Below, piece after piece: positions 3,358 through 18,050 of a stretch of 18,050 bases of DNA. Each line of letters begins with the position of its first letter. The first letter of the stretch is position 1. The stretch spans positions 1 to 18,050 of the forward strand of contig JAUXGB010000013.1 in NCBI GenBank assembly GCA_030622515.1. Reading direction: 5' to 3'. The notes under the pieces are model-generated. The model made no database searches. It worked only from the letters and a program-made list of their open reading frames with translations, and was not told the DNA's origin. Source of the DNA: Candidatus Altiarchaeota archaeon. Its GTDB lineage: Archaea; SpSt-1190; DYHY01. Both the position numbers and the translations under genes were made by a program.

Positions 3358-4341
3358 ATGGCAAATTCCACTTATAAAACTGTAAAATCCTATTCCACGG
3401 AAAAAATCGAAATAGTTGTCATGCTCCTCGTCCTCTTTGTCATCGCAAGCGCATTTTACCCGGAACTCAGGAATCTTGCCTATATCGCCCTTGCCGGTCT
3501 CCTCGGCTACTTCCTCCTCCAGATGCTTCTCCAGTCCGGCATAATTCTCGAAATCCCGGAATACAAGAGATGCGTCGTCCTGAGGATGGGTCATTACCAC
3601 CGTGTTGCAGGGCCCGGCTGGGTCTTCGTTGTCCCAATCCTTGAGAAGGTCCAAGTCGTCGATTTGCGAGTGCAAACAATGGACCTCCAGCCGCAGGAGG
3701 TAATAACAACCGACCAGATTCGTGCGACAATCGACGCAGTAGTCTATTATCAGGTTGTCAACCCAAAGCTCGCCATCCTGAAGGTCAAGGAGTTTGAAAA
3801 GACAATCACAGGCTACGTCTTTGCAGCCATGCGAGACATCGCATCCAACCTCACCCTAAATGAGCTCTACGGAGAGCTTGAAAAAGTCAATGACATTATC
3901 AAGGTAAAGGTCGAGCCCATGGCAGAGGACTGGGGAATAACACTGCGTGACGTCCAAATCGTCAATGTAACCATTCCGGAGCACATTCAGGAAGCCATGC
4001 ACGCGCGAAGAAAGGCACGCGAGGAATTTGCAGCAGCCCAGTTCGAAGCCCGGGCCCAGAAGACAGTCATCGAAGCCCTTGGCGACGCATCAAAGAAACT
4101 CGACGACAGGGCACTGACCTACCTCTACATCAGGGAAGCCCTTCCGAAAATAGCCGAAGGAAAGAGCACAAAAGTATTCTTCCCGGTTGAGTTTGCCAAG
4201 CTGGCAGAAAACCTTGGCTCCGCCGGCATCTCCCACAAAGAGGTATCCTCGGCAGCCGCAGGCCTCTACCCCCTCGCACTGAAAAAAGCAAAAGACATGA
4301 TGGACGAGGAAAGCAAAAAGAAGGAAAGCGAAGAAGAGTAA
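3358..4341 (+). CDS. SPFH / band-7 (stomatin/prohibitin-like) membrane protein with a charged C-terminal tail
   Basis: An N-terminal TM helix is followed by the stomatin signature RCVVLRMGHYHRVAGPGWVFVVPILEKVQVVDLRVQTMDLQPQEVITTDQIRATIDAVVYYQVVNP. The C-terminus is coiled-coil, Ala/Glu-rich and then KKKESEEE. Confidence 0.85.
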   Translation: MANSTYKTVKSYSTEKIEIVVMLLVLFVIASAFYPELRNLAYIALAGLLGYFLLQMLLQSGIILEIPEYKRCVVLRMGHYHRVAGPGWVFVVPILEKVQVVDLRVQTMDLQPQEVITTDQIRATIDAVVYYQVVNPKLAILKVKEFEKTITGYVFAAMRDIASNLTLNELYGELEKVNDIIKVKVEPMAEDWGITLRDVQIVNVTIPEHIQEAMHARRKAREEFAAAQFEARAQKTVIEALGDASKKLDDRALTYLYIREALPKIAEGKSTKVFFPVEFAKLAENLGSAGISHKEVSSAAAGLYPLALKKAKDMMDEESKKKESEEE

Positions 4342-4747: not shown

Positions 4748-6754
4748 TCAACCCTCATTCGGAAAGTCGCTGCACTCTATCGTGCTGGCGTCATCAATCT
4801 CTTCCCGATACTGGAAGGCAAAAGTCATGGTGTAAAGGGTTTCGTCCAGCCCCTCGTCAGTAATAATCTCCCTAAGGCAGAACAGGTCTGTGACGTCAAC
4901 AGTCACATTGTAGTCAATTGAGCCTGTGTAAAGCTGGCCGTCAACCTCGTGCTTGCAGCACTCGCCCTTCCAAGGACTCCGCTCACAATCCACCTTAAAT
5001 AGCTCTATTGGGATGAGGGCATCCGGGTCCTCCACAACCGTCCCAGAGGGATAGGTTGTCGCAGTGTCTCTTGAGACATCCTCAGTTTCCTTGCAGATGT
5101 CGACTATATCATCAAAGTTGCTCCACAGCTTTTCAATATCAGCACAGTCATCCGCCTTCCAGTTCGAAGACGAGGTGTTGACCGTGCCAAACGTCGGCTG
5201 GTTAGTTTTCAAGGCAAGCGACAGGGGTGATGTCCATGTAGCTATGCTGCCGTTGGCCTCAGCGTTTATGCCAGCGTCGATATCAATGCCAATGTTTTTC
5301 ACCCTGACAACTGTCGGGTGCTCCAGCTCGTTCTTGTTGAAAAGGTCAGCATAAGCCTCAGTCTTGTTCCCGAAGTTCTGGACCAGCCCCTCTTGGAAGA
5401 TAGTTTCTATCGAGCTTACCTGCTGCACATCGCATGTTGTGCACTTGCCCTCTTCCGGCTCCTTGCACTCTGGGGGATAGTAGGCAGGGTCGCCAATCCT
5501 CTCGCAGATTCCGTTTCCGCATGTAAAGCAGTCGCGTGAGCATGTTCTTGTGTTCTCCCCCTTATCTGCCTCGCAGTAAAGGTTTCCGCAGTGGTCGCCA
5601 CAGTCCTGGCTGTTTCCGCAGGTCTCGATAGCAGTGCACTGCACTACATGGTCGCTGTCGCCTTCCCTGCACCAGAACTCGATTGAGCAGACCCCGTCCT
5701 CTGTCCTAGACGGAAGGCCCGGTGTTGACGAACCACCCTCGCAGGCAGAGTTGCTCCACTGGTCAGTTATCCCACAGTCTTCCGGGGCAACATCCGAATA
5801 GCAGGTTTCCCCGCTCTCGCAGTCCTGAAGGCTGTAGCCTGCCCTCACGGCGGCCAGCTGGTTGCTCTCAAGTCCCAAGCTGCTCAGGTCTTTGTAGCTT
5901 TTCCTAACGGCGCAGTCCCTTGGGCACCTGTTTATGTAGTTCCTGACCGTGAACATTAGCACCTCATGCTGCTGGCAAATCCCATCTCCACAGGTGGCGC
6001 CTGCATCTTCAGAATTGAGCTGGGTGCAGTCATTGCCAACCTCAAAGACATTGCAAACCCCGTCGTTTGTGTAGAAACAGTCGCCAACAGCATAGCCTCC
6101 ATAGCCGGGCCCCATGCTTGTTGGCTTTCCATGATAAGCATTTGAGTAAGCCTCGCTTTCTCCAGCCTTCCAGTTGCAGGTCCCGTCACCGACCCATCCG
6201 CAGTCTTCAGGACAGTTCCATATTGTTTCCTTTCCCTTCCGTGGGGTCCCCTTGATATCACCCTCCCTGTCCTTGTCGTAAAGGTTGTCGCATGTCCCGT
6301 CACCGCAGCAGCCATACTGGCTTGGGTCTGTGCACTTTGCGACAGGCTCCCCACAGTCGATTGGGCAGTTCTCAACTGTCTCGTTAACAGTCGGGGGATA
6401 AAGCTGGCCGCCAGACATCCCTTCCTCGCACCATTGCCACATAAGGATTTCGTTCAGGATAGGAACCCCTCCATAATCAGTTTGCAACGAAGCATTTACC
6501 GAAGGTATCCCACCGTGCGCTGAAGAATCATCAACAGCAAACGTGAGTATAAAGTCAACAGCAGTCTCCATAAAGAGTCGGGCCTGCTCATTAGCATGAA
6601 CTGCCTCGATGTAAAGTGTCTCGGCAGCCTGTAAATCCATATACCTGTCTATCTGGGAAAGGTAGCCGGCAGCTATCGTAAGCCCCACGCCCATGGCAAG
6701 GCCGCCAAGCATGCAGAGCAGGTCGGTAGCAAAAGCTTTCCGTCCTTTACTCAC
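4748..6754 (-). CDS. Large cysteine-repeat extracellular protein (668 aa) with an N-terminal class III signal-like anchor. It is the last gene of the array.
   Basis: A GTG start at 6752-6754 is preceded by GGAGGTGA. The N-terminus reads MSKG|RKAFATDLLCMLGGLAMGVGLTIAAG. There are about 43 Cys, in repeated NCPxDCG (x3) and CG[DN]GxC (x4) motifs. Confidence 0.8.
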   Translation of the reverse strand: MSKGRKAFATDLLCMLGGLAMGVGLTIAAGYLSQIDRYMDLQAAETLYIEAVHANEQARLFMETAVDFILTFAVDDSSAHGGIPSVNASLQTDYGGVPILNEILMWQWCEEGMSGGQLYPPTVNETVENCPIDCGEPVAKCTDPSQYGCCGDGTCDNLYDKDREGDIKGTPRKGKETIWNCPEDCGWVGDGTCNWKAGESEAYSNAYHGKPTSMGPGYGGYAVGDCFYTNDGVCNVFEVGNDCTQLNSEDAGATCGDGICQQHEVLMFTVRNYINRCPRDCAVRKSYKDLSSLGLESNQLAAVRAGYSLQDCESGETCYSDVAPEDCGITDQWSNSACEGGSSTPGLPSRTEDGVCSIEFWCREGDSDHVVQCTAIETCGNSQDCGDHCGNLYCEADKGENTRTCSRDCFTCGNGICERIGDPAYYPPECKEPEEGKCTTCDVQQVSSIETIFQEGLVQNFGNKTEAYADLFNKNELEHPTVVRVKNIGIDIDAGINAEANGSIATWTSPLSLALKTNQPTFGTVNTSSSNWKADDCADIEKLWSNFDDIVDICKETEDVSRDTATTYPSGTVVEDPDALIPIELFKVDCERSPWKGECCKHEVDGQLYTGSIDYNVTVDVTDLFCLREIITDEGLDETLYTMTFAFQYREEIDDASTIECSDFPNEG

Positions 6755-7313
6755 TCCTCGTCACCTCCGTTGCCTCTTCGATTCTCTTCCGCAGCTTCCA
6801 GTCAGTGTCTACCTTGGTTATCTTCTCCCTCGTGAGTCTGGGGTTTCCCTCTTCATCAAGCGGAAGCGGGATTAGGTAGTGCCTTGACAAGGCCTCTGTC
6901 TTAGTCTTATCAAAGCCTGCGCAGTCGCCTGCAGTGAAAAGGGCTTCCCCGCTGTTATGTTTCATCAGGCTGAAGTAGTAACAGCCCCTTAAATAGTCTA
7001 GAGTAAACCGCGACCACTTCCCTTCCACAAGCCCCTCGACACTATAGTCCTCACCACAAACCTTTGGTGTGGTAGTGTCAGCTATTATGGCGCTAATCAT
7101 CAGGTTGTAAAGCCGCGGGTTTCCCTCGCATGCCGTGTCATGTGCGGTTGAGTAGGAAAGCGACTGCATGTAAGGCAGTCTTACATCGGCAAGCATCTTC
7201 TCAGTCATATGGAAGGTTGTTGTCATGTCGAAAAGCAGGGCAAAGTAGGCAATAGTTACAAGTGAGAACATAAGTGTTGCTTCCATCAGGCAGTGGGTTA
7301 GTGCTCCTCTCAT
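6747..7313 (-). CDS. Pilin-like hypothetical protein (188 aa)
   Basis: The N-terminus is MRG|ALTHCLMEATLMFSLVTIAYFALLF. The ATG overlaps the upstream stop (ATGA), and the 3' end overlaps the next gene by 8 nt. Confidence 0.7.
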   Translation of the reverse strand: MRGALTHCLMEATLMFSLVTIAYFALLFDMTTTFHMTEKMLADVRLPYMQSLSYSTAHDTACEGNPRLYNLMISAIIADTTTPKVCGEDYSVEGLVEGKWSRFTLDYLRGCYYFSLMKHNSGEALFTAGDCAGFDKTKTEALSRHYLIPLPLDEEGNPRLTREKITKVDTDWKLRKRIEEATEVTRSE

Positions 7314-8284
7314 TCCATATCCTCCAAGAATTGCCTTCCCTGCCTTTTCACCTTGTCGATGATGTCGTCATTTAGGTCAGGGTTTGCGCACTCGCTGTGA
7401 GCCTTCCATACCCAAATCTTTAGCGAGCCTATATGCGTTGCGTCATCATAAACAATCCCCACGGGAAGCATGTAGTCTGTCGGCTTCGAATCCTTCACAT
7501 ATTCCGACAGCTGTTTCAATGTCCTAAGCCTTGCCTTCCATTTCATGTATGTCATTCCAGCCTTAGCTATTACAGCCCCAACGACAGCTGCCACTATCAT
7601 AGATGTGCCGGCACTAGGTGCGGCAAGCGCGGCCCCGACAGCAACACCAGTGCCTGCAGCCACAAGAACTGATGTCATTACATCGTCCTCGGTATAGACA
7701 TCTATAACATTGTTGAAGTGGTTCTTCATCGTCTGCTTCGTGCCTTCAAAGACCTGAGACTGCATGTCTGACCAGACGCTTCGTCCAAAGCTCCACTTGT
7801 AGGGAACAGTTATCTTTTCCTTGTGTGGGCAGAAAATGTCAACCCCGCCAAGGCCCATGCATCCTGCATGTGCATAATAGAGAGGGTTAAGAACCTCTTT
7901 CGTCCGTTCATAGTCAATCACCTCAGCCCTCCAGTGGTAGCAGAAAAGGTGGCTTTCAGGCGACATCTCCCCCATGACAGCTATGTTTATGTCGAAAGCG
8001 TCGGCAAGGGGCGATTCCCACTGGCCATACTTGTCGTCAAAGCTTTTTATTTTATCAATATCAAGCAGGTTCTTGTGGGCTGTCAGGTCCGGCTTGGTAA
8101 AAACATGGGACAGCGTCTCCTGCGAAGATACAAGCCTGTGCGCAACCATCACCGCATACTTGTATGGCATGTAAGTGTCAACCTCGCCCTGAAACTTCAT
8201 GTTAGCACCTGCGATAATGACAAAGACCAGGATTATCATAAGAAGGGAGACAAACGCTGATGAAAACCACGATAGTCCTTTCAT
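7310..8284 (-). CDS. Pilin-like hypothetical protein (324 aa) with a second Gly/Ala-rich TM helix
   Basis: The N-terminus is MKG|LSWFSSAFVSLLMIILVFVIIAGA. A second hydrophobic segment, VLVAAGTGVAVGAALAAPSAGTSMIVAAVVGAVIAKAG, lies near residues 197-234. The start directly follows the upstream TAA. Confidence 0.7.
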   Translation of the reverse strand: MKGLSWFSSAFVSLLMIILVFVIIAGANMKFQGEVDTYMPYKYAVMVAHRLVSSQETLSHVFTKPDLTAHKNLLDIDKIKSFDDKYGQWESPLADAFDINIAVMGEMSPESHLFCYHWRAEVIDYERTKEVLNPLYYAHAGCMGLGGVDIFCPHKEKITVPYKWSFGRSVWSDMQSQVFEGTKQTMKNHFNNVIDVYTEDDVMTSVLVAAGTGVAVGAALAAPSAGTSMIVAAVVGAVIAKAGMTYMKWKARLRTLKQLSEYVKDSKPTDYMLPVGIVYDDATHIGSLKIWVWKAHSECANPDLNDDIIDKVKRQGRQFLEDME

Positions 8285-8830
8285 TTAGCTCACCCACGTG
8301 CAGTTTGACTCGTCGAAATCGTTCGCCCCCAGTTCGAAGTCAAGGTTGTCCTCCCCAGTCTCAAGATTAGTGTGCTTGGTAAATACAACTATGAACCCCT
8401 TTCCCTTTGGCAGCCGGATTGTTTTTTTCGGAACATTGGTTATCGGGATAAAGCTCAGCCCCGACTCCTTCCTGTCAGGGCTCCAGACAGCAACAAAGCC
8501 GCCGGGTCCCCCTGTGCAGACATGCTGGAGTTCCCCAAAGTCACTCCAACCCTCTACGCCGCATTTGGCCGTGTCAACAGTCACAAGATAGCTGTAGGTT
8601 CCGGGGAAGTTAACGCAGTAGACCCCCATGTCTGGTGAGGTTGCAACAGCTGTCATAGCTCCTGCAAGGGTGTTTGCGACCATCCTGGCATTCTGAAGCG
8701 CCCAAAGCTGCCCCTGCATCTGGAGAAGGTAGCCCACAAGAATCACCCCTGCAACCATCATCAGGGCTAAGGGAATAAGCTGGAGCATTCCGTAAACCTC
8801 TTCTTCCTCGTCTGCAAGCTGTCCTCTCAT
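8285..8830 (-). CDS. Pilin-like hypothetical protein (181 aa)
   Basis: MRG|QLADEEEEVYG is followed by the helix MLQLIPLALMMVAGVILVGYLL. The gene lies 8 nt after the stop of the 753-aa gene. Confidence 0.65.
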   Translation of the reverse strand: MRGQLADEEEEVYGMLQLIPLALMMVAGVILVGYLLQMQGQLWALQNARMVANTLAGAMTAVATSPDMGVYCVNFPGTYSYLVTVDTAKCGVEGWSDFGELQHVCTGGPGGFVAVWSPDRKESGLSFIPITNVPKKTIRLPKGKGFIVVFTKHTNLETGEDNLDFELGANDFDESNCTWVS

Positions 8831-8838
8831 CTTTCCAC

Positions 8839-11100
8839 CTAGAACGGTTTGACCGCTCCCAGCACCTCAACCCTGTCTCCCTTGTGCTCTGCCGTGATTG
8901 CTGCAGAAACTGCAGGGTTGCACGAAATCGGCACGCCGCAATCAACTGTGTAGCAGGCTGCGCACATGGCAGGAATATCACATGTTGAAATGGCGTTCTT
9001 GAGGCAAAACACCATCCCCGTGTTGCCAAGGAGTCCGCAGTTGCCAATCGCAGCGGACAAAGTGCCAATGCCTCGCGAAAATCCCTTGCTGATAAAGCCG
9101 CTTGAAAAAGTGGCGGCCTTGATTCCCCAGTGGTCATAAACCTGACCATAGTCGAGAGGCTGCACCGGCATGCCCCGCAGCTGGATAATCCTGTTCCCCA
9201 GCTTTATCCCGTCCTCGTTAAGGTTCAACGCCTCGACAATGCAGCCCTCGCTTAAGGTGAGGGCCTTGGTATCATAATCGCAGTTGAGCCTCACAGCGCA
9301 CTCTGCCAGCTCAACCTTGTTGGTTACAGTTTCAGGGCTAACATCATCCATCTGGAAGTCTGGCGCAGGGAAAGTCTCCGTAACCGTGACGGTTTTCACG
9401 CCACAGTCAGACGACCTCAGGGCTGCAAGCACTTTCCCTTGGGTTTCAAGCAAATCGTCATTTATCTCCTGAAGCTCCGCGGCGTGCTGCTCAATAACAG
9501 CGGCCTGCCCGACAACATTAAAGTACCAGTCGCAGATGTAGTCCTTGTCATAACCCGCCTCCAGCCTGCATATCTCATCCATCTCGCTGGCAGGCTCTGC
9601 AAGGCCGGCAGCGACAAATCTCCATGGGTCGTGCGACAGGCCGGCCTCCCCAAGGACGCCGGTCCAGCTGTAAAGAAAGTCTGCCTTAAGCTGCTCAATT
9701 TTCTCGCCATCTTCTGGATGGTCTCTTGCCATTTCGTCCAGCTTGTAGGAAACAACTATCTCAACATTGTCCCAAAGCCTTTCAGCATGTTCATCCCTGA
9801 CCACAATAAACTCACTGTCCCCTTCCTGAAGCACCTGCACTATGTAGGTCGGGGTTGTTGCAGTTTTCTCAGTGAAGTGGTTTGCAGCATAGCCGCCATC
9901 TTCCAGGAGGACAAACAGCTTGTGCATATCACCGACAAACTTTTGGTGAACCTGCCTTCCCTGTGCCGCCCTAATCTGCGGCTGGTCAGACTCGACTATC
10001 GACTTTATCTGGCTTTCCGCGCTTGTCCCGTCCTTAACAACAATAACCCGGTCTATCCCGACAGGGACATTTGTCGCATTGCTGGCAATAATCTTCTCAA
10101 AATCCTCCTGCATCTCGCTTGTGGCGTCCCCAAGTTCGTATATCAGGTTGGGATAAGCTGACCCAATGAGCATTGCAATGTAACCGCTGCCGGCAGAAAC
10201 CGCAAGGTAGCCATTAAGATACTTCTTCCCAATCCCAAGCTTAAACGACTGTCTCAAAATCTTAAGCCTGCTTACCTTTTCCGTCTTTGAAAGCTGGCCA
10301 ATCTTCCACGCCTCGGCAGTGTACCAGCTGGTTGTCACGTCCTGAGTCCCTTTGATTATGTTTTTTGAAGTTACCTGTGAGGTTTCCACGACAATATCGT
10401 CGCTTGCGAGAAGAACCTCGTCAAGGTATTGGGCATTGCCTGTCTTCTGCCACTTCCCTGCGGCAAAGTCGAGGTATTTTGCCAGGTCATCCCCCTGAAT
10501 GAAAACCTTGACCCCGTCCCCTTTGTCAACCCATGCCCCTGTCTTAAGGGCCTGCTTGCTCATCCTGAACTGGCCTCCCCTGATTAGCAGCTTCTTCGTC
10601 TTTGCAAACCTGAGAAGCCCTTCCTTCATTCTTACGAATTTCCCACCAACCTTTGAAAAGACAGTCTTAAGCGCCTGCATACTCCACTTTGCAACCCCCA
10701 CACCCTTTATTGCCTGCCCCGTAGCCTTGAGGGAAGTGTAAGCGCCTTTGAAACCCTTGCCTATGCTTTTCCCTGCCTTAACCATCTCAGTCCCAAGCGA
10801 AGCTGCAGCGGCAACACCTAGAGCTGTCCTAAGTGCAGCCTTGCCTGAAATTGTTTTGCAGTCATCGCACTGGAATTGAATGTATGGCGGCGGAGCCTCA
10901 AAGCTCTTGAAGTCGCCCTCGCCCCCGCGGCACACCTCCTGGATGTATCCCTTCATCTCAGTCGCTTTTGAAGGAATCGGGTAGTTGCCAAACATAACAC
11001 CCTCAAGGGCGAGCATCATCGGCTTTGCTCCGAAAGCGATAAGGCTTCCGAAAAGGATTACAACCAGCAGCCCGCCTGTTATCCCGCGTCTATATCCCAT
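8839..11100 (-). CDS. Giant pilin-like protein (753 aa)
   Basis: The N-terminus is MGYRRG|ITGGLLVVILFGSLIAFGA. A Lys/Gly-rich region follows. A C-terminal Cys cluster reads NCGLLGNTGMVFCLKNAISTCDIPAMCAACYTVDCGVPISCNP. No in-frame stops occur over 2.26 kb. Confidence 0.8.
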   Translation of the reverse strand: MGYRRGITGGLLVVILFGSLIAFGAKPMMLALEGVMFGNYPIPSKATEMKGYIQEVCRGGEGDFKSFEAPPPYIQFQCDDCKTISGKAALRTALGVAAAASLGTEMVKAGKSIGKGFKGAYTSLKATGQAIKGVGVAKWSMQALKTVFSKVGGKFVRMKEGLLRFAKTKKLLIRGGQFRMSKQALKTGAWVDKGDGVKVFIQGDDLAKYLDFAAGKWQKTGNAQYLDEVLLASDDIVVETSQVTSKNIIKGTQDVTTSWYTAEAWKIGQLSKTEKVSRLKILRQSFKLGIGKKYLNGYLAVSAGSGYIAMLIGSAYPNLIYELGDATSEMQEDFEKIIASNATNVPVGIDRVIVVKDGTSAESQIKSIVESDQPQIRAAQGRQVHQKFVGDMHKLFVLLEDGGYAANHFTEKTATTPTYIVQVLQEGDSEFIVVRDEHAERLWDNVEIVVSYKLDEMARDHPEDGEKIEQLKADFLYSWTGVLGEAGLSHDPWRFVAAGLAEPASEMDEICRLEAGYDKDYICDWYFNVVGQAAVIEQHAAELQEINDDLLETQGKVLAALRSSDCGVKTVTVTETFPAPDFQMDDVSPETVTNKVELAECAVRLNCDYDTKALTLSEGCIVEALNLNEDGIKLGNRIIQLRGMPVQPLDYGQVYDHWGIKAATFSSGFISKGFSRGIGTLSAAIGNCGLLGNTGMVFCLKNAISTCDIPAMCAACYTVDCGVPISCNPAVSAAITAEHKGDRVEVLGAVKPF

Positions 11101-11632
11101 AGGTTACCAGTACGCCCCCTTCAAATCTCATAATAACAAGCTTATGCTCACCAGGCCCAAGAGTTACGCCTGCCAATGCGCCTGCACTGCAGTGGTGGAC
11201 CTCGCCGGCATAACTGTATATTTCTTTCTTCCAAAACCAGCTGCCTTCTGTTTCGTGCCAGCTTCTGGCTATCAAGACGCCCTTGCTCCCACTATCGCAC
11301 TTGTCCTGCATGGCTTTTACACTTTTCTTAAAGGAGGGGTTGCCTTCGTCAAAACCCGGCCAAACACTAATCCCATCCTGAATCGTATTGCAGTCATATA
11401 TCAATATCATCTTGTTCCTTGGCACGGAAATAGGCACCTCTTCCAAAATCTTGCCCTCACATACATCCCTGAGCGCATTTGTTGTGTCAGCTATGCCATA
11501 AAACATTCTGGTCTCCGCGCTCGAATCAACCATTCCCCTCACAGACCAAGCCGCGAAGTAGATAGTTACTGCAGCCAAAATCATGATGAAAAGGGTAGTA
11601 TAGGCAACACCCCTCAAACTGTGCTTAGACAT
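11090..11632 (-). CDS. Pilin-like hypothetical protein (180 aa)
   Basis: The N-terminus is MSKHSLRG|VAYTTLFIMILAAVTIYFAAW. It overlaps the downstream gene by 11 nt. Confidence 0.65.
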   Translation of the reverse strand: MSKHSLRGVAYTTLFIMILAAVTIYFAAWSVRGMVDSSAETRMFYGIADTTNALRDVCEGKILEEVPISVPRNKMILIYDCNTIQDGISVWPGFDEGNPSFKKSVKAMQDKCDSGSKGVLIARSWHETEGSWFWKKEIYSYAGEVHHCSAGALAGVTLGPGEHKLVIMRFEGGVLVTYGI

Positions 11633-11640
11633 CGTGAAGA

Positions 11641-12072
11641 TTATCCGGTCAGCCCGTTCTTTATCGCCTGCTTATTCGCGTAGGTGTGGCAGGCGCTTGG
11701 GTTGTAAATTTCGTGGACCTCTGAGCGGGTAATTGAGGAGGACTCTGTAACGTAGAGGTAAACCGCGCAGTCGCAGTTAGTGAACTTTGCATAATTGTCC
11801 CACTCCTCCCGGGAAATCCAGCCAAGGGATACGGCGGACTTGGTTATGTCTTCCAGTCTCTTCTCTGTCGGGTTGTTGGTCCACTTGCTCCTGTACGAGT
11901 TAAGGCAAAAGCTTTCAATGGTGATTTGCGCAGTGCTCTCATCCGTATTTTTGATTATATCGTCAAACTCCTCAAGGTTGGCCTTCCCCATCATCTGATA
12001 CATTGCGACCCCGACTACCAAAGCCAGGAGAATTGCGACTAAAATCCAGATAGGCTGGTCTGTTCCTTTCAT
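11641..12072 (-). CDS. Pilin-like hypothetical protein (143 aa)
   Basis: The N-terminus is MKG|TDQPIWILVAILLALVVGVAMYQMM. It is preceded by a 56-nt gap containing ATATTTA (a possible internal promoter). Confidence 0.65.
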   Translation of the reverse strand: MKGTDQPIWILVAILLALVVGVAMYQMMGKANLEEFDDIIKNTDESTAQITIESFCLNSYRSKWTNNPTEKRLEDITKSAVSLGWISREEWDNYAKFTNCDCAVYLYVTESSSITRSEVHEIYNPSACHTYANKQAIKNGLTG

Positions 12073-12128
12073 TCAAATCACTCTAGACCAATAAGCAGGG
12101 AGCAGGTAAATATGGCTTTCTCAAGAAT

Positions 12129-12794
12129 TCAGGGAAATGTCCAGCCAACAGCCTCATTTGCGCACTGCTGCACGCTTATCCCGCAGTTATCAGCCTTGTT
12201 CTTAACCGTTTTGCAAACCATGGCGCAGTATGGCGCAAAGTCCCTCTTCATGGTGGTTGCCGAGCCGCTCTCAATCTTCTCCCTCATAATGCTTGCCGCA
12301 GACCCATAGTCAATTGTCCTCAGCTTTTCCCCGCAATCCTCCCCAGCTTCGCAGAGGATAAACTTCAACGCCTCAACACACCTGACAGCATTGTAGCATG
12401 GCGCACCTTCAGTCCTCCCGTCAGTCCCGCCACAGTGATATGTCCGCGGGTTTGCTATCAATTCCCCATTTTCATCCACTATGACCAGCCCTGAGGAGTA
12501 GAGGTGCCACGGTATCTCATAGTACTTGTTCCACTTGTTTACAAACTCGTTTTCACAGTTTGAGCACCCTTCACAATTCTCGTTCGGGCAGTTTGCAATA
12601 TGCTGCCCCCATGCAACGCACTGGATTTTCATGGCGAAGTAAGCGCCAGCATTCCCTTCCAGCTGCTGGGAGTATCCACTAGTTTCTTCCCTGACCACGT
12701 CAGCGTTGAGGTAGTTCATCATCAGGAGAACTACCACTATACCTACCATTAAGGAAATTACCAGCGCAATTGTCATGTCAAAGCCGCCTTTCAT
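12129..12794 (-). CDS. Pilin-like Cys-rich hypothetical protein (221 aa from the ATG at 12794; the ORF track's longer 242-aa form starts at 12857)
   Basis: The ATG at 12792-12794 forms an ATGA overlap with the stop of the upstream gene. The N-terminus is MKG|GFDMTIALVISLMVGIVVVLLMM, and it carries many Cys (CEGCSNCENE etc). Confidence 0.7.
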   Translation of the reverse strand: MKGGFDMTIALVISLMVGIVVVLLMMNYLNADVVREETSGYSQQLEGNAGAYFAMKIQCVAWGQHIANCPNENCEGCSNCENEFVNKWNKYYEIPWHLYSSGLVIVDENGELIANPRTYHCGGTDGRTEGAPCYNAVRCVEALKFILCEAGEDCGEKLRTIDYGSAASIMREKIESGSATTMKRDFAPYCAMVCKTVKNKADNCGISVQQCANEAVGWTFP

Positions 12795-13204
12795 TCCCCA
12801 AGATACCCCCTTAAAGGACTGTTCCAGCACCTCTCGGTCGGCGGGTCTCTGGAACACTCCTTGTATATTTCAAGAACTGCAACGCAGACATCATAGCAAA
12901 TTGACGGGCTTTTCTGCGCGTCTTCAGGCACGCACTGGCTGCTTAAGCTGAGCCGCTGGGAATATTCAGGAACCTGGGAAGGCATTGTAATGTCAATAAA
13001 GTCGCTCCTGTACCATGCGTCGCAGGCCCTGTAAATTGCCTGCACTTTCAGCCCTGTCGCAAAGGGTATGTTTGAGTCGTCAAGGCTGAATTCGCCAGAA
13101 GTCCCAAGCTTTCCAATAAGGACCGTATAGCTTACAAGGAGGAGGCCAATCCCCACCAGTACAATCAGTATCCAAGCAACAGGCATCGTCATCCCTTTCC
13201 TCAA
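12791..13204 (-). CDS. Pilin-like hypothetical protein (137 aa with the TTG start at 13204, or 133 aa from the ATG at 13192)
   Basis: With the TTG start the N-terminus is (M)RKG|MTMPVAWILIVLVGIGLLLV. GAGGAAAGGG lies immediately 5' of the internal ATG at 13192. Confidence 0.65.
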   Translation of the reverse strand: MRKGMTMPVAWILIVLVGIGLLLVSYTVLIGKLGTSGEFSLDDSNIPFATGLKVQAIYRACDAWYRSDFIDITMPSQVPEYSQRLSLSSQCVPEDAQKSPSICYDVCVAVLEIYKECSRDPPTERCWNSPLRGYLGE

Positions 13205-13722
13205 GTTACATCCCTCTCCACCCTGTCCTTCACATCCCCTATCCTTGAGTTGACGCAGTAAAGGTAGGCTGTATTGTAGCTCATGTCAACCTCGCCGCCG
13301 TCAATAATCGCCTTGTGGGTCTTTGTGCTGTACTGGAATGTGTCAGGAAACTTTGCAGGGCTTACCCTGCACCCTATCTCGTCTATAAGCAGCTTTACGC
13401 ACGCGGCCTTGCACTGGCGGCACGGCTTTCTAGGCCTTGGGGCAGTCTCATAGCAGACCTGACAAAAACCCCACCTGTCGTCTTCCAAAATATCTTGGCT
13501 AATAGCAGCCTCCCTCAGGCTTCCCGGTATTGTCGAGTCAAGGACAAGGTTGCTTGTCCAGTCCCTGCACGACCTTACCAAATCGTTTGTCGACAGGGCC
13601 ATCTTAACGTCAGTCGCCTCATTTGCCAGAGGCACATATCTTTGGAAAATACCTAAGTAGACGAGATATAGGAGTAGCAATGCAATTATTATCGCAATTA
13701 TCCACTTTATCCCAATCTCCAT
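13201..13722 (-). CDS. Pilin-like Cys-containing hypothetical protein (173 aa)
   Basis: The N-terminus is MEIG|IKWIIAIIIALLLLYLVYLGIF. It has an ATG start and Cys pairs CRQCKAAC. Confidence 0.65.
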   Translation of the reverse strand: MEIGIKWIIAIIIALLLLYLVYLGIFQRYVPLANEATDVKMALSTNDLVRSCRDWTSNLVLDSTIPGSLREAAISQDILEDDRWGFCQVCYETAPRPRKPCRQCKAACVKLLIDEIGCRVSPAKFPDTFQYSTKTHKAIIDGGEVDMSYNTAYLYCVNSRIGDVKDRVERDVT

Positions 13723-13731
13723 CGGGGTTAC

Positions 13732-14310
13732 CTAACTACATTTTATTGTGCCAATCCTTGTAGATGAGCTACAAAGGGTAGACGTCCTCAACGTGTTCTC
13801 AAGTATTGACTGCTTCTTGTTCTCGCTTACCGCAGTACACTGCTGGTCAACAAGATTTGACATTTCAATAAGGGCGTTGCACGCGTTTACGCACTGCTTG
13901 ACATAGGTGTCATCGAACTTGACAAACCCGTTGTTGCATTTTGTCGACCCCGGATTTTGGGCACATTCCCTCTGGACGTCAAGCGCTTTGTCCTTCAGGC
14001 TGTTTTTGTCGTCCCAGCAGCAACCTGTCTTGCTGCCAAAAGGCGCCATCTTGTCAGGTATCTTGAAAGTCTCGACTATCGCCTTAGCCTTGTACTTGTC
14101 AGGGCTGCCAAGCCACCGCTGGCAAGCAGCTATAGCGCTCCCAGCCTCAAGCTGCTCCTTCTGCGTATCCCCTATCTTCCACATGTCAAACAAGCCCGTC
14201 TGGACCTTGTTTACCGCCCCCATACCTACGAGCAGTATCATCACAAAGAGGATTACCGCAATAACCAGACCTATTACATTGGATTCTGCCATGGTTGAAT
14301 AGATAATCAA
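13732..14310 (-). CDS. Pilin-like Cys-rich hypothetical protein (192 aa with the TTG start at 14310; more likely 186 aa from the ATG at 14292)
   Basis: Codon 14308-14310 is TTG. The in-frame ATG at 14290-14292 gives MAESNVIGLVIAVILFVMILLVGMG. The C-terminal half has 10 Cys. Confidence 0.65.
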   Translation of the reverse strand: MIIYSTMAESNVIGLVIAVILFVMILLVGMGAVNKVQTGLFDMWKIGDTQKEQLEAGSAIAACQRWLGSPDKYKAKAIVETFKIPDKMAPFGSKTGCCWDDKNSLKDKALDVQRECAQNPGSTKCNNGFVKFDDTYVKQCVNACNALIEMSNLVDQQCTAVSENKKQSILENTLRTSTLCSSSTRIGTIKCS

Positions 14311-14329: not shown

Positions 14330-14488
14330 CTACCCAAAGAGGTTGAAACTGGAAACCGAGCGGCCAACCTGCCCCCATGCGTCCCCAACCATGAAGTTCA
14401 TAGCCCCGGTGAACCAGAGCGCCAGAGCAACGACAATGACTGCAAGGCCAATCGTCATTATAAGCTTGAAAATGTCTTCCCCTGCCAT
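14330..14488 (-). CDS. Small single-TM protein, 52 aa (MAGEDIFKLIMTIGLAVIVVALALWFTGAMNFMVGDAWGQVGRSVSSFNLFG). It is missing from the ORF track, which reports only the overlapping 62-aa 'MRYGRG' frame.
   Basis: My own translation of the minus strand gives an ATG at 14486-14488, 3 nt after the upstream stop, and a TAG at 14330-14332. It has a clean TM helix. The overlapping 62-aa frame is Arg/Gly/Trp-rich and looks spurious. Confidence 0.55.
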   Translation of the reverse strand: MAGEDIFKLIMTIGLAVIVVALALWFTGAMNFMVGDAWGQVGRSVSSFNLFG

Positions 14489-14491
14489 ACC

Positions 14492-15028
14492 TCAACTCCC
14501 CAGATAGTCAAACCTCCAGCTAAATACGCTTCTCTCCTCGCCAAGGTGATGCAGCCTCACAATTGCCTGACCGCTTCCATAGCCGCTGGCGTCAATCTTG
14601 ACCTTATTGCTTGATATGTCGTCCCAGTTAAATATAACTCCCCTGCTTGAGAGAAGCTCCGCGCTCCCCTCGCCAGACGGGAAGCCCTTTGTCCCTTCAG
14701 CAATCTTCTCCTCATTCAACCATACCTCGTAAGAGAGCTGGACCTTTGCCAAAGCAATTTCGTCGTCACCGCAGTTGCAAACGCTTATGAGGGTGCCGCC
14801 GAAAACAGTTCCCTCCTTTGCAACAGCCCGCCTGAACCCAAGAACCTCAAGCCTCAGGTCCTCCCCTTCAATGCCGCTGCACGCGCAGGCAAAGCTGTGA
14901 AGGGCGCGTTCCGAGTCCTTGGAAGAATCGATAACCCCCGGCAGGATAACAAAGAGGAAGACAAATATGACTAGAAAGACGGCAACAATCTCAATCACTA
15001 TCGTCATGTTAAACCCGGTCGTTCCCAT
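14492..15028 (-). CDS. Pilin-like hypothetical protein (178 aa)
   Basis: The N-terminus is MGTTG|FNMTIVIEIVAVFLVIFVFLFVIL. The ATG overlaps the upstream TGA (TGATG). Confidence 0.7.
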   Translation of the reverse strand: MGTTGFNMTIVIEIVAVFLVIFVFLFVILPGVIDSSKDSERALHSFACACSGIEGEDLRLEVLGFRRAVAKEGTVFGGTLISVCNCGDDEIALAKVQLSYEVWLNEEKIAEGTKGFPSGEGSAELLSSRGVIFNWDDISSNKVKIDASGYGSGQAIVRLHHLGEERSVFSWRFDYLGS

Positions 15029-15510
15029 CAGGATATCTCCTCAATTGTTACGCAACCGTCAGGGTAGGTCCCGCCCCCAACTGCCTCAATGCCAATCATG
15101 TAGCTTCTCCCGCTCCAGATATAATGGGTTTCGGTTGGCCCAAGCATGTAAAAGTTCAGCCCTTCCTCGTCTCCCGCAGGGCAGGTGGCGACAGCAGTAA
15201 CAATCGGGCCGCCGCCAGCCCTTATCTCCCGCCTCTCATCCTCCTCAAAGCAGTCGCAGTTGACAAGGTTCTTCAAAAAAGAGTCGAGCGAAACCCCATC
15301 GCCCTGCTTGTTAAACCTCACATAAGCAACCCCGTCCTTCAGGTAAGCGCAAAGCTTCTCCATATTGTAATCCCCTGTCGAGGTTTTTCCCCCGCTTGCA
15401 AGGGCGCTGAGAAGGGTCAGGGTGCTTCCCCCGAGAAGGGCGAAAACCAGGGCAGCAACAACTATCGCAATCCCGATGTTTATCGCATTCTTGGTTCCCT
15501 GTTCTACCAA
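15028..15510 (-). CDS. Pilin-like hypothetical protein (160 aa, TTG start)
   Basis: A TTG at 15508-15510 is immediately preceded by an in-frame TAG. The N-terminus is (M)VEQGTKNA|INIGIAIVVAALVFALLGG. Confidence 0.55.
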   Translation of the reverse strand: MVEQGTKNAINIGIAIVVAALVFALLGGSTLTLLSALASGGKTSTGDYNMEKLCAYLKDGVAYVRFNKQGDGVSLDSFLKNLVNCDCFEEDERREIRAGGGPIVTAVATCPAGDEEGLNFYMLGPTETHYIWSGRSYMIGIEAVGGGTYPDGCVTIEEIS

Positions 15511-15614
15511 CTAAGCCACGTTCCAATCTTCGAGGCACTGCCCTGTATCATCATAAAGATGACAGCGGCAGCAAGAAGTACCAGGATTATTCCCACAATG
15601 GCTTCAATGCTCAT
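15504..15614 (-). CDS. Possible tiny single-TM ORF, 36 aa (MSIEAIVGIILVLLAAAVIFMMIQGSASKIGTWLSW), not in the ORF track
   Basis: GAGGGG lies 3 nt upstream of the ATG at 15612-15614. Its TAG stop overlaps the TTG start of the next gene by 7 nt. It fills an otherwise empty 110-nt gap. Confidence 0.35.
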   Translation of the reverse strand: MSIEAIVGIILVLLAAAVIFMMIQGSASKIGTWLSW

Positions 15615-15621
15615 GTCCCCT

Positions 15622-15810
15622 CTAGACTGCCGGGCTGACTGTTCCCCCAAGTGCATCACCTACAATCTGGTCCCTTATTCCTGTAAGGGCAGAACTGACC
15701 CCCGAAGGGTCCATTATGCCTCCAAACACATCTGACGTAAAGAAAATGTAAATAACAAATAAAAATACTATCGCACCGACAACAAACACTAGACCATACT
15801 TCCCCCTCAT
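15622..15810 (-). CDS. Small single-TM protein (62 aa), MRG|KYGLVFVVGAIVFLFVIYIFF
   Basis: It has an ATG start with GGGGGA upstream. The N-terminus is pilin-like and the C-terminal half is Gly-rich. Confidence 0.55.
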   Translation of the reverse strand: MRGKYGLVFVVGAIVFLFVIYIFFTSDVFGGIMDPSGVSSALTGIRDQIVGDALGGTVSPAV

Positions 15811-15813
15811 CTT

Positions 15814-16005
15814 TCATCCCCCAATAATGTCCTTCCCCACAGCTGCCAAAGTGTCTCCTGCCCCGCCAACACCACCTCTCCCTATCAGGTCAGACCATGA
15901 GCCAAGGGAGAAAATCTGGCCGAAAGCTATGGCAACAACAACCATCCCGATAATGAAAACCATGGTCCATACCAGATTTGAATTAACAACCTTGAACGCC
16001 ATCAT
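15814..16005 (-). CDS. Small single-TM protein (63 aa)
   Basis: It has a TM helix (VWTMVFIIGMVVVAIAF) and a Gly-rich tail. Its ATG overlaps the upstream TGA (ATGA). Confidence 0.5.
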   Translation of the reverse strand: MMAFKVVNSNLVWTMVFIIGMVVVAIAFGQIFSLGSWSDLIGRGGVGGAGDTLAAVGKDIIGG

Positions 16006-16157
16006 GTCACCTGCCCAATACCAATAGCCTTTGCTATATTTGCAAGCTGGCCCCAGTAGCCCACCATTGACTGGCCCTGTGTAAGCATGAGGGCGACCAC
16101 TACCATCCCGACCAGCGCAAAGACAACGAAGTAAATTATTCTGTTAACGCTTGCCAT
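16002..16157 (-). CDS. Small single-TM protein, 51 aa (MASVNRIIYFVVFALVGMVVVALMLTQGQSMVGYWGQLANIAKAIGIGQVT), not in the ORF track
   Basis: My own translation gives an ATG at 16155-16157 overlapping the upstream TAA (TAATG). The TGA at 16002-16004 overlaps the next ATG (ATGA). Confidence 0.5.
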   Translation of the reverse strand: MASVNRIIYFVVFALVGMVVVALMLTQGQSMVGYWGQLANIAKAIGIGQVT

Positions 16158-16351
16158 TACAACCAGTCCATCCCCGGGAAGAGGTCGTGAAAGAGGGTTG
16201 TGTAAAAGCTGATTGCCAAGTTGTAAACCCCGGTGAAAATTCTTCCCATGCCCGGCATAATAGCAAAGCCAAGCGCGCCTATAATCACAACAATGGTTAT
16301 CACTGCCTTCAGGTTAAATGCCGGCTGTCCCACATTTCCGTCATCTGACAT
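16157..16351 (-). CDS. Small single-TM protein (64 aa)
   Basis: It starts 4 nt after the stop of the platform gene, with GGTGTGAGAT upstream. It has a TM helix (AVITIVVIIGALGFAIM). Confidence 0.5.
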   Translation of the reverse strand: MSDDGNVGQPAFNLKAVITIVVIIGALGFAIMPGMGRIFTGVYNLAISFYTTLFHDLFPGMDWL

Positions 16352-16354
16352 ATC

Positions 16355-18050
16355 TCACACCAACAGTGTCGAGCTGAGCGCGCCAAATACCAGCGATATC
16401 ACAGCTGTCACCAATCCATATAGTATGGCGCCAACTACTAAAACTTTTCCAAGGATTGCTTCCGTCCCAACCTTGTCGTCAACCCCGTACTGCAGCCCGC
16501 CAATAAAGTATCCCATTATTGTCAGCAGTATGATGGTGTAAAAACCAACGACAAGCTGGAGGAAGCTTGCCTGCATAGTCCCCTGAATGTTTATCATGCT
16601 CTGGATAAAAGAGCCCGAATAGGCCTGAAGCGCTCCCCCTGCAAAGACGTTCTCAACCTCGGTCGCAATCCTCAAAACTATAGTGGTTATCAGCTGCGAC
16701 AGCCCGACCACGACCCCGCTGATAAGGGGGATAAGAAACAGCGCCTGGAACTGCATTGATGTGACGTGGTCGCTCAAAACGTCCTCGACCTTGTTCTGCA
16801 CAGCCTGCAGGTTCTTCAGGTAGTTCGAGATGCTTAGTGTCGTGATAGCGGCAACCCGCGGCCCCTCCTTTGCCGACTCAACAATAACCGACATAACATT
16901 CTTGACTATCGATGACGGGAACAAATTGATTGAGCCAAACCTCTTGTCAAAAATCGCCATCTCAAGCGGCATTCCCCCCCTTGTCACGTTGGCAATAGTA
17001 TTTTGGAAAAACTTGGCCGTTGTCGTTCCCTTCAAATCAGCCGCCGCCCTCTGGAAGGCCTCCTCAAGCGGCTTGCCCTGGTCAAGAATATTCCCCAGCT
17101 GGAAAAGGGACGAAGAGAACTCCTCTTCCATCCTGAATATCTTCTCCCTAAGCTCAAGCTTTTGGAAAGACACCAGATAGAAGTAGGCGCCAATAGCTAC
17201 GCCAAGTGCAACAATCAGCGGAAGGGTTATGAGGGCGCTCGCCCCCGCCGTGCTTCCCTGTGGTATCTGCGCTGAAAGTATCCTCCCGTTCGACGCTGAA
17301 ATCGCCATAAGGGTTATTGACGAGAGGAGAAGGAAGATGGCGAGTGAGGGGATAATCGCGGGAACGTTTATTTCTTTCCCCTTGGAAATCTCAAGCCTGA
17401 AGTGGCCGGGAGGGGCAAGCTCTGGATATTTTGTCATATCTATCTTTGAAAAACCACTTGGCCTTGTGCTCAGGATGTAAACAATCACAAGTATCATGAT
17501 GAACGGGAGGAAAAAGTCGTAGATAACCACGAGAGGGGCTGCAATGCTCCCCTCCGACATGAAAATGCTTGCAACAGGCGCCATGACTAGGCCGAGAATC
17601 GGCAGCAAAACCCCCAGCGCGTTGGTGATGGCAACAGGCATGCCTAATCCCCTTGCGAATCCTTCCATCTTAAGCTTCGTGTCCTCAAGCGCAAGGTTAA
17701 TCGCCTTCTCCAGCGTCCTCAACCTCAGCGCATCGTTAGGCTCATCAGGCGAGTTGGCAACAAGATACAATGCGTTTGAAAAACCCGGCGCCCACTTCTT
17801 CACCCTCTGGCTGTAATTCAGCAGCGCCTCCTTCATGTCAAGGTGAATCTTCAGCTCAACCTCCCACATCATCAGCTTAAACTCCCTGCCGATTGGTTCC
17901 GGCACGGTTCGAGACGCAAAGCTGACCGCCTTCTCAAGGCTTGGCGAGACCCTCAGGCTGATTACAAGGTAGAGAATAGCCAGCGGCGACTGGCCAAGGA
18001 TTGTCATCCTCAACCCCTTCATTCTCCAGTATGGGTAAAACATCACGACC
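16355..18050 (-). CDS. FlaJ/TadC/PilC-family (T2SS-F domain) polytopic membrane platform protein of a type-IV-filament system; the 5' end is at or just beyond the window edge
   Basis: The 563+ aa protein has an N-terminal TM helix followed by a cytoplasmic alpha-helical domain. Multiple TM blocks are separated by a second soluble domain. This length and topology are typical of archaeal FlaJ/TadC. The frame is open to nt 18050. Confidence 0.7.
   Translation of the reverse strand, partial: VVMFYPYWRMKGLRMTILGQSPLAILYLVISLRVSPSLEKAVSFASRTVPEPIGREFKLMMWEVELKIHLDMKEALLNYSQRVKKWAPGFSNALYLVANSPDEPNDALRLRTLEKAINLALEDTKLKMEGFARGLGMPVAITNALGVLLPILGLVMAPVASIFMSEGSIAAPLVVIYDFFLPFIMILVIVYILSTRPSGFSKIDMTKYPELAPPGHFRLEISKGKEINVPAIIPSLAIFLLLSSITLMAISASNGRILSAQIPQGSTAGASALITLPLIVALGVAIGAYFYLVSFQKLELREKIFRMEEEFSSSLFQLGNILDQGKPLEEAFQRAAADLKGTTTAKFFQNTIANVTRGGMPLEMAIFDKRFGSINLFPSSIVKNVMSVIVESAKEGPRVAAITTLSISNYLKNLQAVQNKVEDVLSDHVTSMQFQALFLIPLISGVVVGLSQLITTIVLRIATEVENVFAGGALQAYSGSFIQSMINIQGTMQASFLQLVVGFYTIILLTIMGYFIGGLQYGVDDKVGTEAILGKVLVVGAILYGLVTAVISLVFGALSSTLLV

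Follow-up and report, generated by a model that had tools for sequence, protein, structure and literature searches.

The window analyzed here is the entire contig JAUXGB010000013.1 (18,050 nucleotides (nt)) from an assembly named Candidatus Altiarchaeota archaeon, and it carries a single minus-strand operon that spans from position 18046, at the contig end, to position 4748. The first gene in view (16355..18046, minus strand) is a 563-amino-acid (aa) open reading frame (ORF) for a TadC/FlaJ/GspF-like platform protein, the N-terminus of which is cut by the contig end. It is followed by five micro-ORFs, s1 to s5, all on the minus strand, which are the subject of this report. s1 (16157..16351) encodes 64 aa with an acidic N-terminus, a hydrophobic helix, a Pro-Gly, an amphipathic extension and an aromatic C-terminus. 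s2 (16002..16157) encodes 51 aa with one helix and a short tail (…WGQLANIAKAIG…), and s3 (15814..16005) encodes 63 aa, or 62 aa from a second ATG at 16002, with a helix and a Gly-rich tail that ends in GG. s4 (15622..15810) encodes 62 aa that begin with MRG and continue with a helix and a Gly-rich tail. The prepilin-like s5 (15504..15659) encodes 48-51 aa, or 36 aa if an internal ATG at 15614 is used. A sixth micro-ORF, s6 (14330..14488, minus strand), encodes 52 aa with one helix (MAGEDIFKLIMTIGLAVIVVALALWF…), lies between the genes for a 178-aa and a 192-aa protein, and had been missed by an earlier note on this DNA that was made from the letters alone.

That note had reported five tiny, chained, single-helix ORFs at 15504-16351. 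All five are present, and each contains one strongly hydrophobic 19-residue window with a mean Kyte-Doolittle value of 2.5-3.2. The chaining had been read correctly at the junctions: a 3-nt gap separates the platform gene from s1, TAATG joins s1 to s2, ATGA joins s2 to s3, and a further 3-nt gap separates s3 from s4. The proposal that GAGGGG acts as a Shine-Dalgarno element is probably wrong, as these letters belong to the codons AGA-GGG-GAC (Arg-Gly-Asp). The two ORFs that the note had added to its list fared differently: the 51-aa ORF at 16002..16157 stands, and the boundary given for the 36-aa ORF (15504..15614) is probably mistaken, with an upstream start very probable. Most tails had also been called Gly-rich. 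The motifs GGVGGAGD (s3) and GGIMDPSG (s4) are indeed there and the tails of s2 to s4 often end in GG, although "most" is generous for tail glycine contents of 29% (s3), 19% (s2), 18% (s4), 15% (s5) and 12% (s1). Public gene calls for the contig include s1, s2, s3 (in its 62-aa form from ATG 16002), s4 and s6; s5 is absent from them in all six start variants tested.

The five ORFs are genuine coding sequences in a conserved order. Five helix-containing ORFs of at least 35 aa cover 99.6% of the 848-nt region on one strand, compared with at most three such ORFs and at most 74% coverage in 2000 dinucleotide-preserving shuffles. When codon usage was scored over all six frames, with 14 long window genes as the training set, the annotated frame came out best for each of s1 to s6 (+0.26 to +0.49 per codon, with +0.40 for s6; other frames ≤+0.09). 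In the closest relative (L048, L076 and L077, same sample), synonymous sites are saturated, and we therefore report the proportions of nonsynonymous and synonymous differences (pN and pS) rather than dN/dS: pN for s1 to s5 (0.18-0.40) is well below pS (0.63-0.74). Amino-acid identity and pN/pS are 54% and 0.38 for s1, 35% and 0.58 for s2, 47% and 0.49 for s3, and 44% and 0.55 for s4. The mature part of s5 is the best conserved of the five (70%, 0.29); corresponding values are 78% and 0.20 for the platform and 37% and 0.59 for a neighboring 160-aa protein. A search of Rfam gave no match anywhere in the window. An antisense ORF of 203 aa (15124..15735, plus strand) lies over s4, s5 and the gene for the 160-aa protein, and antisense ORFs of varying length occur opposite the module in all loci; we treat them as probably spurious because their lengths are not conserved and their codon usage is poor where scored.

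For comparison we assembled 47 genomic loci, 18 metagenomic loci and 12 contigs found by protein look-up, the related genomic loci being labelled Undinarchaeota, Micrarchaeota, Parvarchaeota and Nanoarchaeota. The same layout, in which the platform gene is followed by five micro-ORFs, two mid-size genes, a single further micro-ORF and about ten larger genes, is found in at least 14 related DPANN loci with platforms 38-78% identical to that of the window; nearly all loci in this identity range have it. The lengths of s1/s2/s3/s4/s5 are 64/52/61/63/53 aa in the closest relative (L048 and L077), 61/47/64/63/40 aa in L001, 63/76/56/48/48 aa in L050, 63/70/56/48/44 aa in L051, 62/48/62/66/39 aa in L053, 61/58/83/69/44 aa in L074, 67/52/71/65/37 aa in L057, 66/55/67/63/37 aa in L059 and 63/56/68/67/34 aa in L075. 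Slightly incomplete versions occur in L052, L054, L055 and L071. Positional counterparts of s6 (36-59 aa) are present in L001, L050-L054, L074 and L075, and in L002, L003 and L004/L005 two modules are fused in single ORFs of 121-148 aa. The earlier note had named conservation of the reading frames as its check; frames, lengths and order are retained in at least 14 loci, and the loss of frames that it had given as grounds for refutation was not seen. The module is not present in one group of high-GC Undinarchaeales, which has a 954-aa ORF after the platform, nor in the loci of the Parvarchaeota/Nanoarchaeota type, the platforms of which are about 30% identical. In five more distant loci of the Undinarchaeota type (L008, L009, L030, L061, L063), a single mini-pilin of about 45-52 aa (…RKG|QFSS…) takes the place of the module. 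In this group a second s5-like gene of 44 aa (NKKA|DISIQ…) is found further downstream; the coordinates in L008 are 11632..11769 and 14019..14153.

The six micro-ORFs are distinct, fast-evolving families in a fixed order, without detectable paralogy. Profile-profile comparison with hhalign among the six positional families gave scores no better than those against reversed-sequence controls, and Pfam and NCBIfam searches with the micro-ORFs, their neighbors and distant relatives returned sub-threshold noise only. When profiles were built with the window and its close relative excluded, s5 alone was recognized (20.7 bits, E 1e-4).

s5 carries the signature of a class III leader, a hydrophobic helix and Glu at position +5. 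Four candidate starts exist, namely GTG 15659 (giving 51 aa), ATG 15656, TTG 15650 and the internal ATG 15614, and s5 very probably starts at 15650-15659 rather than at 15614, as judged from the reading frame upstream of the internal ATG (…ARQSRG|DMSIEAIVG…). The class III signal pattern predicts cleavage after the Gly codon at 15618-15620 (minus strand), which would leave a mature peptide of 37 aa (DMSIEAIVG…WLSW) with Glu+5 encoded at 15603-15605 (minus strand); across the family the predicted mature length is 34-37 aa. The helix, DMSIE-AIVGIILVLLAAAVIFMMI, has a hydrophobicity of 3.2 and follows directly after the predicted cleavage site. Comparable leaders are seen in the closest relative (P0048/L077, KRKPYLRG|EMSVE), in L050, L051 and the metagenomic P0038 and P0041 (RRRRG|DMSVE), in L074 (MKRA|DISVE), in L001, L053 and L054 (MKG|S…) and in L055 (KKG|AMEVD), and the motif [KR]-[GA]|D/E-M/I-S-V/I-E is kept across the s5 sub-clades. 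The codons for Arg-Gly-Asp are AGA GGG GAC in the window and CGC GGT GAC and CGT GGA GAC in two relatives. These synonymous changes point to selection on the peptide, so that GAGGGG is not needed as a ribosome-binding site. Glu or Asp stands at +5 in the window, L077, L050, L051, P0038, P0041, L074 and L055 and is shifted by one or two positions elsewhere; among the N-termini of the operon, judged by eye, only s5 has an acidic residue at +5 after the predicted cleavage site. Searched against 1.84 billion representative proteins, the s5 profile found only 12 at E ≤1e-3, consisting of the s5 family itself and the N-termini of class-III-type proteins of 89-106 aa (RRG|VEMS…, RKG|DISI…), which have small Cys-rich C-terminal parts.

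The genes around the module place it in a filament operon. Homologues of the platform (n=37, 620-785 aa) all come from uncultured archaea. Pfam T2SSF scores the window platform at E=0.038, below the Pfam cut-off, and matches eight of 25 platform homologues, the best at 2.5e-7. A Foldseek search with the whole AlphaFold2 (AF2) model of the platform (predicted local distance difference test 77) gave no global match and a local one to the cytoplasmic domain of EpsF, a platform protein of type II secretion (2vmb/2vma; probability 0.99, template modelling (TM) score 0.62-0.70), and the platform profile had zero matches among PDB sequences. In relatives, a T2SSE ATPase of 758-774 aa is encoded directly upstream of the platform; in the window, that position falls outside the contig. 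Among proteins of solved structure, this ATPase is closest to the Archaeoglobus GspE-type afGspE (1e-26), CpaF of the Tad system (4e-22) and FlaI of the archaellum (7e-18). With T2SSF in its homologues and an ATPase adjacent in relatives, the gene next to s1 has the marks of a GspF/PilC/TadC/FlaJ platform. Downstream of it, an N-terminal hydrophobic helix is found by the screen used in 18 of 19 proteins; the exception is a 668-aa protein below the screen threshold, with a weaker hydrophobic N-terminal stretch after MSKGRKA. [KR][GA] occurs within 12 residues before the helix in ten of the 19, and five of the 19 operon proteins start with M[KR]G, compared with none of 106 background ORFs (binomial P ~3e-7). 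The T2SSF/EpsF signal of the platform, the upstream T2SSE ATPase and this enrichment of leaders together mark this as an operon for a type IV filament of archaeal/Tad type. In our description it is a very divergent representative of the Tad/Epd kind that is specific to DPANN, and we are committed to the view that the micro-ORF module belongs to its filament machine.

Within this operon, s5 combines a short leader that is positively charged and has Gly or Ala at its end, about 20 hydrophobic residues after the cleavage site with an acidic +5, and a gene encoded together with the platform in the window and with the ATPase in relatives. These features suggest that s5 is a helix-only, Flp-like mini-prepilin. 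It is probably the major filament subunit, since it is the most conserved of the five, has the leader signature and is the sole bearer, by eye, of an acidic +5. The motif of the Flp/Fap family is G|xxxxEY, and s5 has Glu at +5 followed by Ala at +6; of the Class_IIIsignal motif QxSxExxxL, the s5 sequence D-M-S-I-E-A-I-V-G retains only Ser3 and Glu5. Pilins of the Tad system consist of a helix only and measure 40-60 aa, the mature Caulobacter PilA having 45 aa (PDB 8u1k; PMC10710030). Like such Flp pilins, s5 is helix-only, its leader ends in Gly, its N-terminal helix is hydrophobic, Glu stands at +5, and the operon that holds it is one with an ATPase of the CpaF/TadA type and a platform of the TadB/C type. 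It differs from them in having no Flp_Fap match, no Tyr at +6 and a mature length of 34-37 aa instead of 40-60, in a gene that stands after the platform and not at the head of the operon, and in orthologues that are in part leaderless.

Two further systems bear comparison. The major pilins of the archaeal Epd type (clade 1 or "system 1", arCOG06620) are about 70 aa long, typically stand-alone and found in methanogens, and a relationship of Epd to Tad pili has been proposed (PMC4858521; bioRxiv 10.64898/2026.04.22.720090). Like s5, they have an archaeal class III signal, are small and lack a C-terminal globular domain; unlike them, s5 is not matched by the Class_IIIsignal profile. The Epd system has two platform genes, whereas here a single long platform is present and the mini-pilin is the fifth of five micro-ORFs. 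In Geobacter, a truncated helix-only pilin gene, PilA-N, is immediately followed by a second gene, PilA-C (PMC10710030), and s5 is similarly followed by a gene that overlaps its end by 7 nt. This next gene (15028..15510, minus strand) encodes the 160-aa protein, which has no Pfam match. In contrast to the Geobacter case, it has an N-terminal hydrophobic helix of its own and is therefore unlike a detached globular half; in the closest relative its orthologue begins with MRG.

The earlier note had suggested that the small ORFs could be minimal pilins or platform accessory subunits. The pair of options was about right, but the five are not equivalent: s5 fits the hallmarks of a prepilin, s1 fits an accessory protein better, and s2 to s4 are undecided between the two. 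The N-flank of s1 is acidic or neutral, without a basic leader, and its C-tail is net basic in most of 14 orthologues, with a net charge of -1 in the window itself. Position, length and architecture of s1 are alike in these 14 loci, and in seven of them its gene directly adjoins or overlaps that of the platform; in the window it begins 3 nt after the platform stop. Basic leader-type sequences that end in Gly or Ala are found in three of the 14, two of them (the window and L048) inside the helix window and the third being the MRG start of L074. In L003 (8210..8575) and L005 (11985..12362), a linker that is strongly basic (…KRKRVKRKG|Q…) connects an s1-like module with a second helix module. Such a topology works only when both the C-terminus of s1 and the linker face the cytoplasm and the second module runs N-in, C-out. 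A 148-aa ORF in L002 (11909..12355) holds two micro-protein modules, each preceded by RRKG. In all three fusion ORFs the basic linker (RRKG or KRKG) before the second module looks like an internal prepilin leader. The coupling to the platform gene, the charge bias, the fusions and the missing basic leader suggest that s1 is probably an accessory protein of the platform rather than a pilin.

For s2 to s4 the picture is mixed. [KR][GAS] stands just before the helix in seven of 12 s2, two of 14 s3 and five of 12 s4 orthologues. In the window, only s4 among s1 to s4 has a leader ending in Gly or Ala (MRG, a start shared with the closest relative and L074), and the s2 copy is without one. Minor pilins and pseudopilins form priming sets (GspH-I-J-K; TadE/TadF), low-abundance subunits that are thought to start assembly. 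The role we propose for s2 to s4 would be similar, as they too are a fixed set of different subunits encoded with the machine; known minor pilins, however, have globular domains and canonical leaders, whereas s2 to s4 (51-63 aa) are domain-less with inconsistent leaders. Tandem flp1-flp2-flp3 genes in the tad operon of Haemophilus ducreyi (PMC3201912) offer another parallel, with several tiny single-helix genes as neighbors in an operon for type IV filaments. Those genes are paralogues, in contrast to the module ORFs, which have distinct identities and order and no detectable paralogy. The claim of the earlier note that such a battery is not part of described pilus operons is consistent with the surveys: the module is undescribed in those of archaeal type IV systems (PMC4858521; bioRxiv 10.64898/2026.04.22.720090) and in DPANN genome papers, which is absence of evidence only, within the literature searched, and helix-only mini-pilins and tandem flp genes are precedents. 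Nothing specific on DPANN pilus structures or micro-ORF batteries was found in that literature.

Taken together, we favor, with moderate confidence, the explanation that the micro-proteins form a conserved module within a type IV filament operon, with s5 as a prepilin and s1 associated with the platform. We propose that a class III signal peptidase removes the s5 leader, with its Arg-Gly end, at the cytoplasmic face of the membrane, and that this cleavage would leave the 37-residue peptide starting with DMSIE. The platform and ATPase would then extract s5 from the membrane and pack it into the core of the filament in the manner of Flp pilins. s1 would be made together with the platform and is probably its neighbor in the membrane, the amphipathic helix at the s1 C-terminus facing the cytoplasm. 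s2, s3, s4 and s6 are predicted to be domain-less bitopic proteins, with their Gly-rich tails most likely facing outward, and would most likely serve as helix-only subunits of low abundance or prime the filament at its base. What the analysis shows is that the genes are coding and conserved in their order, that the operon is of the type IV filament kind and that s5 bears its leader, helix and Glu+5 signature; cleavage, polymerization, topology and all the roles given to s1 to s4 and s6 are inferred.

Several observations weigh against this explanation. The start codon of s5 is ambiguous, and its leader overlaps s4 by up to 38 nt. Orthologues of s5 in one sub-clade, namely L057 (5002..5115), L059 (5833..5946), L071 (8523..8636) and L075 (10686..10790), all 34-37 aa long, have no leader; they open with M-T/S-E…, with in-frame stops just upstream in L059 and L071, an observation that makes a strict need for processing less convincing. 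No Pfam or NCBIfam family, including Flp_Fap (PF04964) and Class_IIIsignal (PF04021), matches s5 or the other micro-ORFs at E ≤1. Against PDB sequences the s5 profile gave non-significant results only, with Caulobacter PilA and PilE1 among them at E ~0.6, to which we give no evidential weight. With a crude motif screen, no candidate prepilin peptidase turned up in the flanks of 78 sequences (77 loci and the window). s1 to s4 lack a conserved basic leader, those of s2 to s4 being inconsistent across orthologues. An AF2 model from the single s1 sequence with no alignment, which is weak evidence, shows one helix over residues 14-57 and no hairpin, and this single long helix resembles a pilin helix rather than an accessory hairpin. 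Finally, the leave-out profiles failed to recognize s1 to s4 and s6 of the window (3-10 bits). Orthology of these at the sequence level had appeared convincing only with the window in the training set and was dropped after this failure; because of it, the correspondence of s1 to s4 and s6 across sub-clades stands on position, size and architecture.

The main rival explanation, which we consider unlikely, is that none of the five is a filament subunit and that all are membrane-embedded parts of the assembly machine, such as an anchor, a stator or an alignment set. The filament would then be built of larger downstream proteins, and the Arg-Gly of s5 would be a positive-inside patch. Five distinct families in fixed order beside the platform do resemble a stoichiometric complex, and the leaderless s5 orthologues and the failure of s5 to match any pilin family profile fit such a role. 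About 13 larger proteins with N-terminal helices, many starting with M[KR]G, are available as possible pilins. On the other hand, the s5 motif [KR][GA]|D-M/I-S-V/I-E is retained at the protein level despite synonymous codon changes and reaches the N-termini of longer class-III-type proteins, whereas the larger operon proteins, judged by eye, show no acidic +5 after the predicted cleavage site. Moreover, helix-only pilins are already known (PMC10710030). A bolder form of the prepilin explanation, which we regard as quite doubtful, is that a fixed set of distinct helix-only micro-proteins, including a subunit of 34-37 residues and thus below the 40-60 aa known for Tad pilins, builds a type IV filament free of globular domains in DPANN archaea, and that the leaderless lineages (L057, L059, L071, L075) do so without processing by a prepilin peptidase.

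Alternatively, all six micro-proteins, s1 included, might be helix-only pilins that co-polymerize or form the tip or base of the filament. At 47-83 aa they match or come close to Flp pilins in size (40-60 aa; PMC10710030), and in each the helix is prolonged by an amphipathic or Gly-rich extension. The modelled s1 is one helix of 44 residues, and the two RRKG-preceded modules of the L002 ORF and the canonical [KR]G leaders of several s2 to s4 orthologues also fit pilins. Against this, s1 to s3 of the window are leaderless, the N-termini of s1 are acidic, and the charge bias and fusions of s1 put its C-terminus in the cytoplasm; Glu+5 is confined to s5, and the families have no detectable sequence relationship. 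We regard a module made wholly of pilins as improbable.

An array of interchangeable major-pilin paralogues in the style of flp1-flp2-flp3, used according to conditions, is very improbable and was already disfavored: tandem flp genes are known from tad operons (PMC3201912) and all members here are small with a single helix, but the profile-profile scores do not rise above those of the reversed controls, and from locus to locus each position retains a length and architecture of its own, with no lineage-specific duplication or loss. We give just as little credence to the idea that the peptides are cargo or effectors, bacteriocin-like and membrane-active, exported by a type IV filament-like machine. 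They are small, hydrophobic, Gly-rich and fast-evolving, and many end in GG; yet there is no pattern of immunity or processing genes, bacteriocin-like Pfam matches are weak and all far below threshold, and the order is strictly conserved within a structural operon over deep divergence, with s1 coupled to the platform gene. The likelihood is next to nil that these are chance ORFs or remnants of one larger membrane protein such as a second TadB/TadC platform, for although their total of about 290 aa with 5-6 helices is near the size of a short TadC and some archaeal systems have two platform genes (bioRxiv 10.64898/2026.04.22.720090), the shuffle test, the codon scores and the fact that at least 14 loci share the ORF boundaries and start/stop couplings argue otherwise, and the concatenated ORFs score ≤4 bits against the platform profile and match no Pfam family, and are therefore not pieces of a split polytopic protein.

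DPANN archaea live attached to hosts, and type IV filaments are the main candidates for contact and DNA uptake. Pili have been reported in all Undinarchaeota genomes (PMC7414124). The operon described here is nearly invisible to profile searches, the platform itself falling below the Pfam threshold, and the best candidate for a filament subunit, s5, is apparently unannotated in the source record. A micro-protein module with a member that bears a pilin signature offers targets for proteomics, sequences to fit into cryo-electron microscopy and tomography maps, and a basis for better detection models of type IV filaments. If s5 is indeed a pilin, it would lower the known size limit for pilins, and its leaderless variants raise the question of whether signal-peptide cleavage is always required for assembly. 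Three features stand out: a pilin candidate of very small size that is apparently unannotated, a set of distinct micro-proteins that stays fixed, and s5 variants without a leader.

The rest of the operon continues on the minus strand. A second mid-size protein of 178 aa with an N-terminal helix (14492..15028) has no Pfam match; its gene holds the same position in all complete loci, and a homologue search with the protein returned only itself. Eleven further genes (4748..14310) encode proteins of 137-753 aa, ten of which start with a hydrophobic helix and several of which are Cys-rich. No convincing Pfam family was found for any protein downstream of the platform. The last gene (4748..6754, minus strand) encodes the 668-aa protein, which is very Cys-rich with repeated C-x-x-C-type stretches, and three smaller genes separate it from the gene for a 753-aa protein (8839..11100, minus strand). 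These two proteins, which match no family, are candidates for tip adhesins. In the window, L050, L053, L074 and L075, roughly half of the downstream proteins have very short leaders of the M[KR]G type, and many others open with MAE, MAD or MEI and are leaderless. Two starts in the ORF list may need adjustment: that of a 242-aa ORF is likely mis-set, with ATG 12794 (MKGGFDM…) probable and an ATGA overlap with the preceding stop, and the 192-aa ORF probably starts at 14292 (MAESNVIGLV…), like its orthologues with MAADRVIG, MATDRIIG and MAESRVIF.

The operon is chromosomal and not part of a mobile element, as follows from its recurring flanking genes. Those at 73..1203 and 3358..4341 in the window, both on the plus strand, recur beside the operon in distant relatives. 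A Band_7/SPFH gene lies at the far end of the operon in L074 (12905..13212) and a SIS-domain gene lies near it in L075 (2283..3362), and in L050 and L051 the operon comes after genes for RNA polymerase, L7Ae and NusA.

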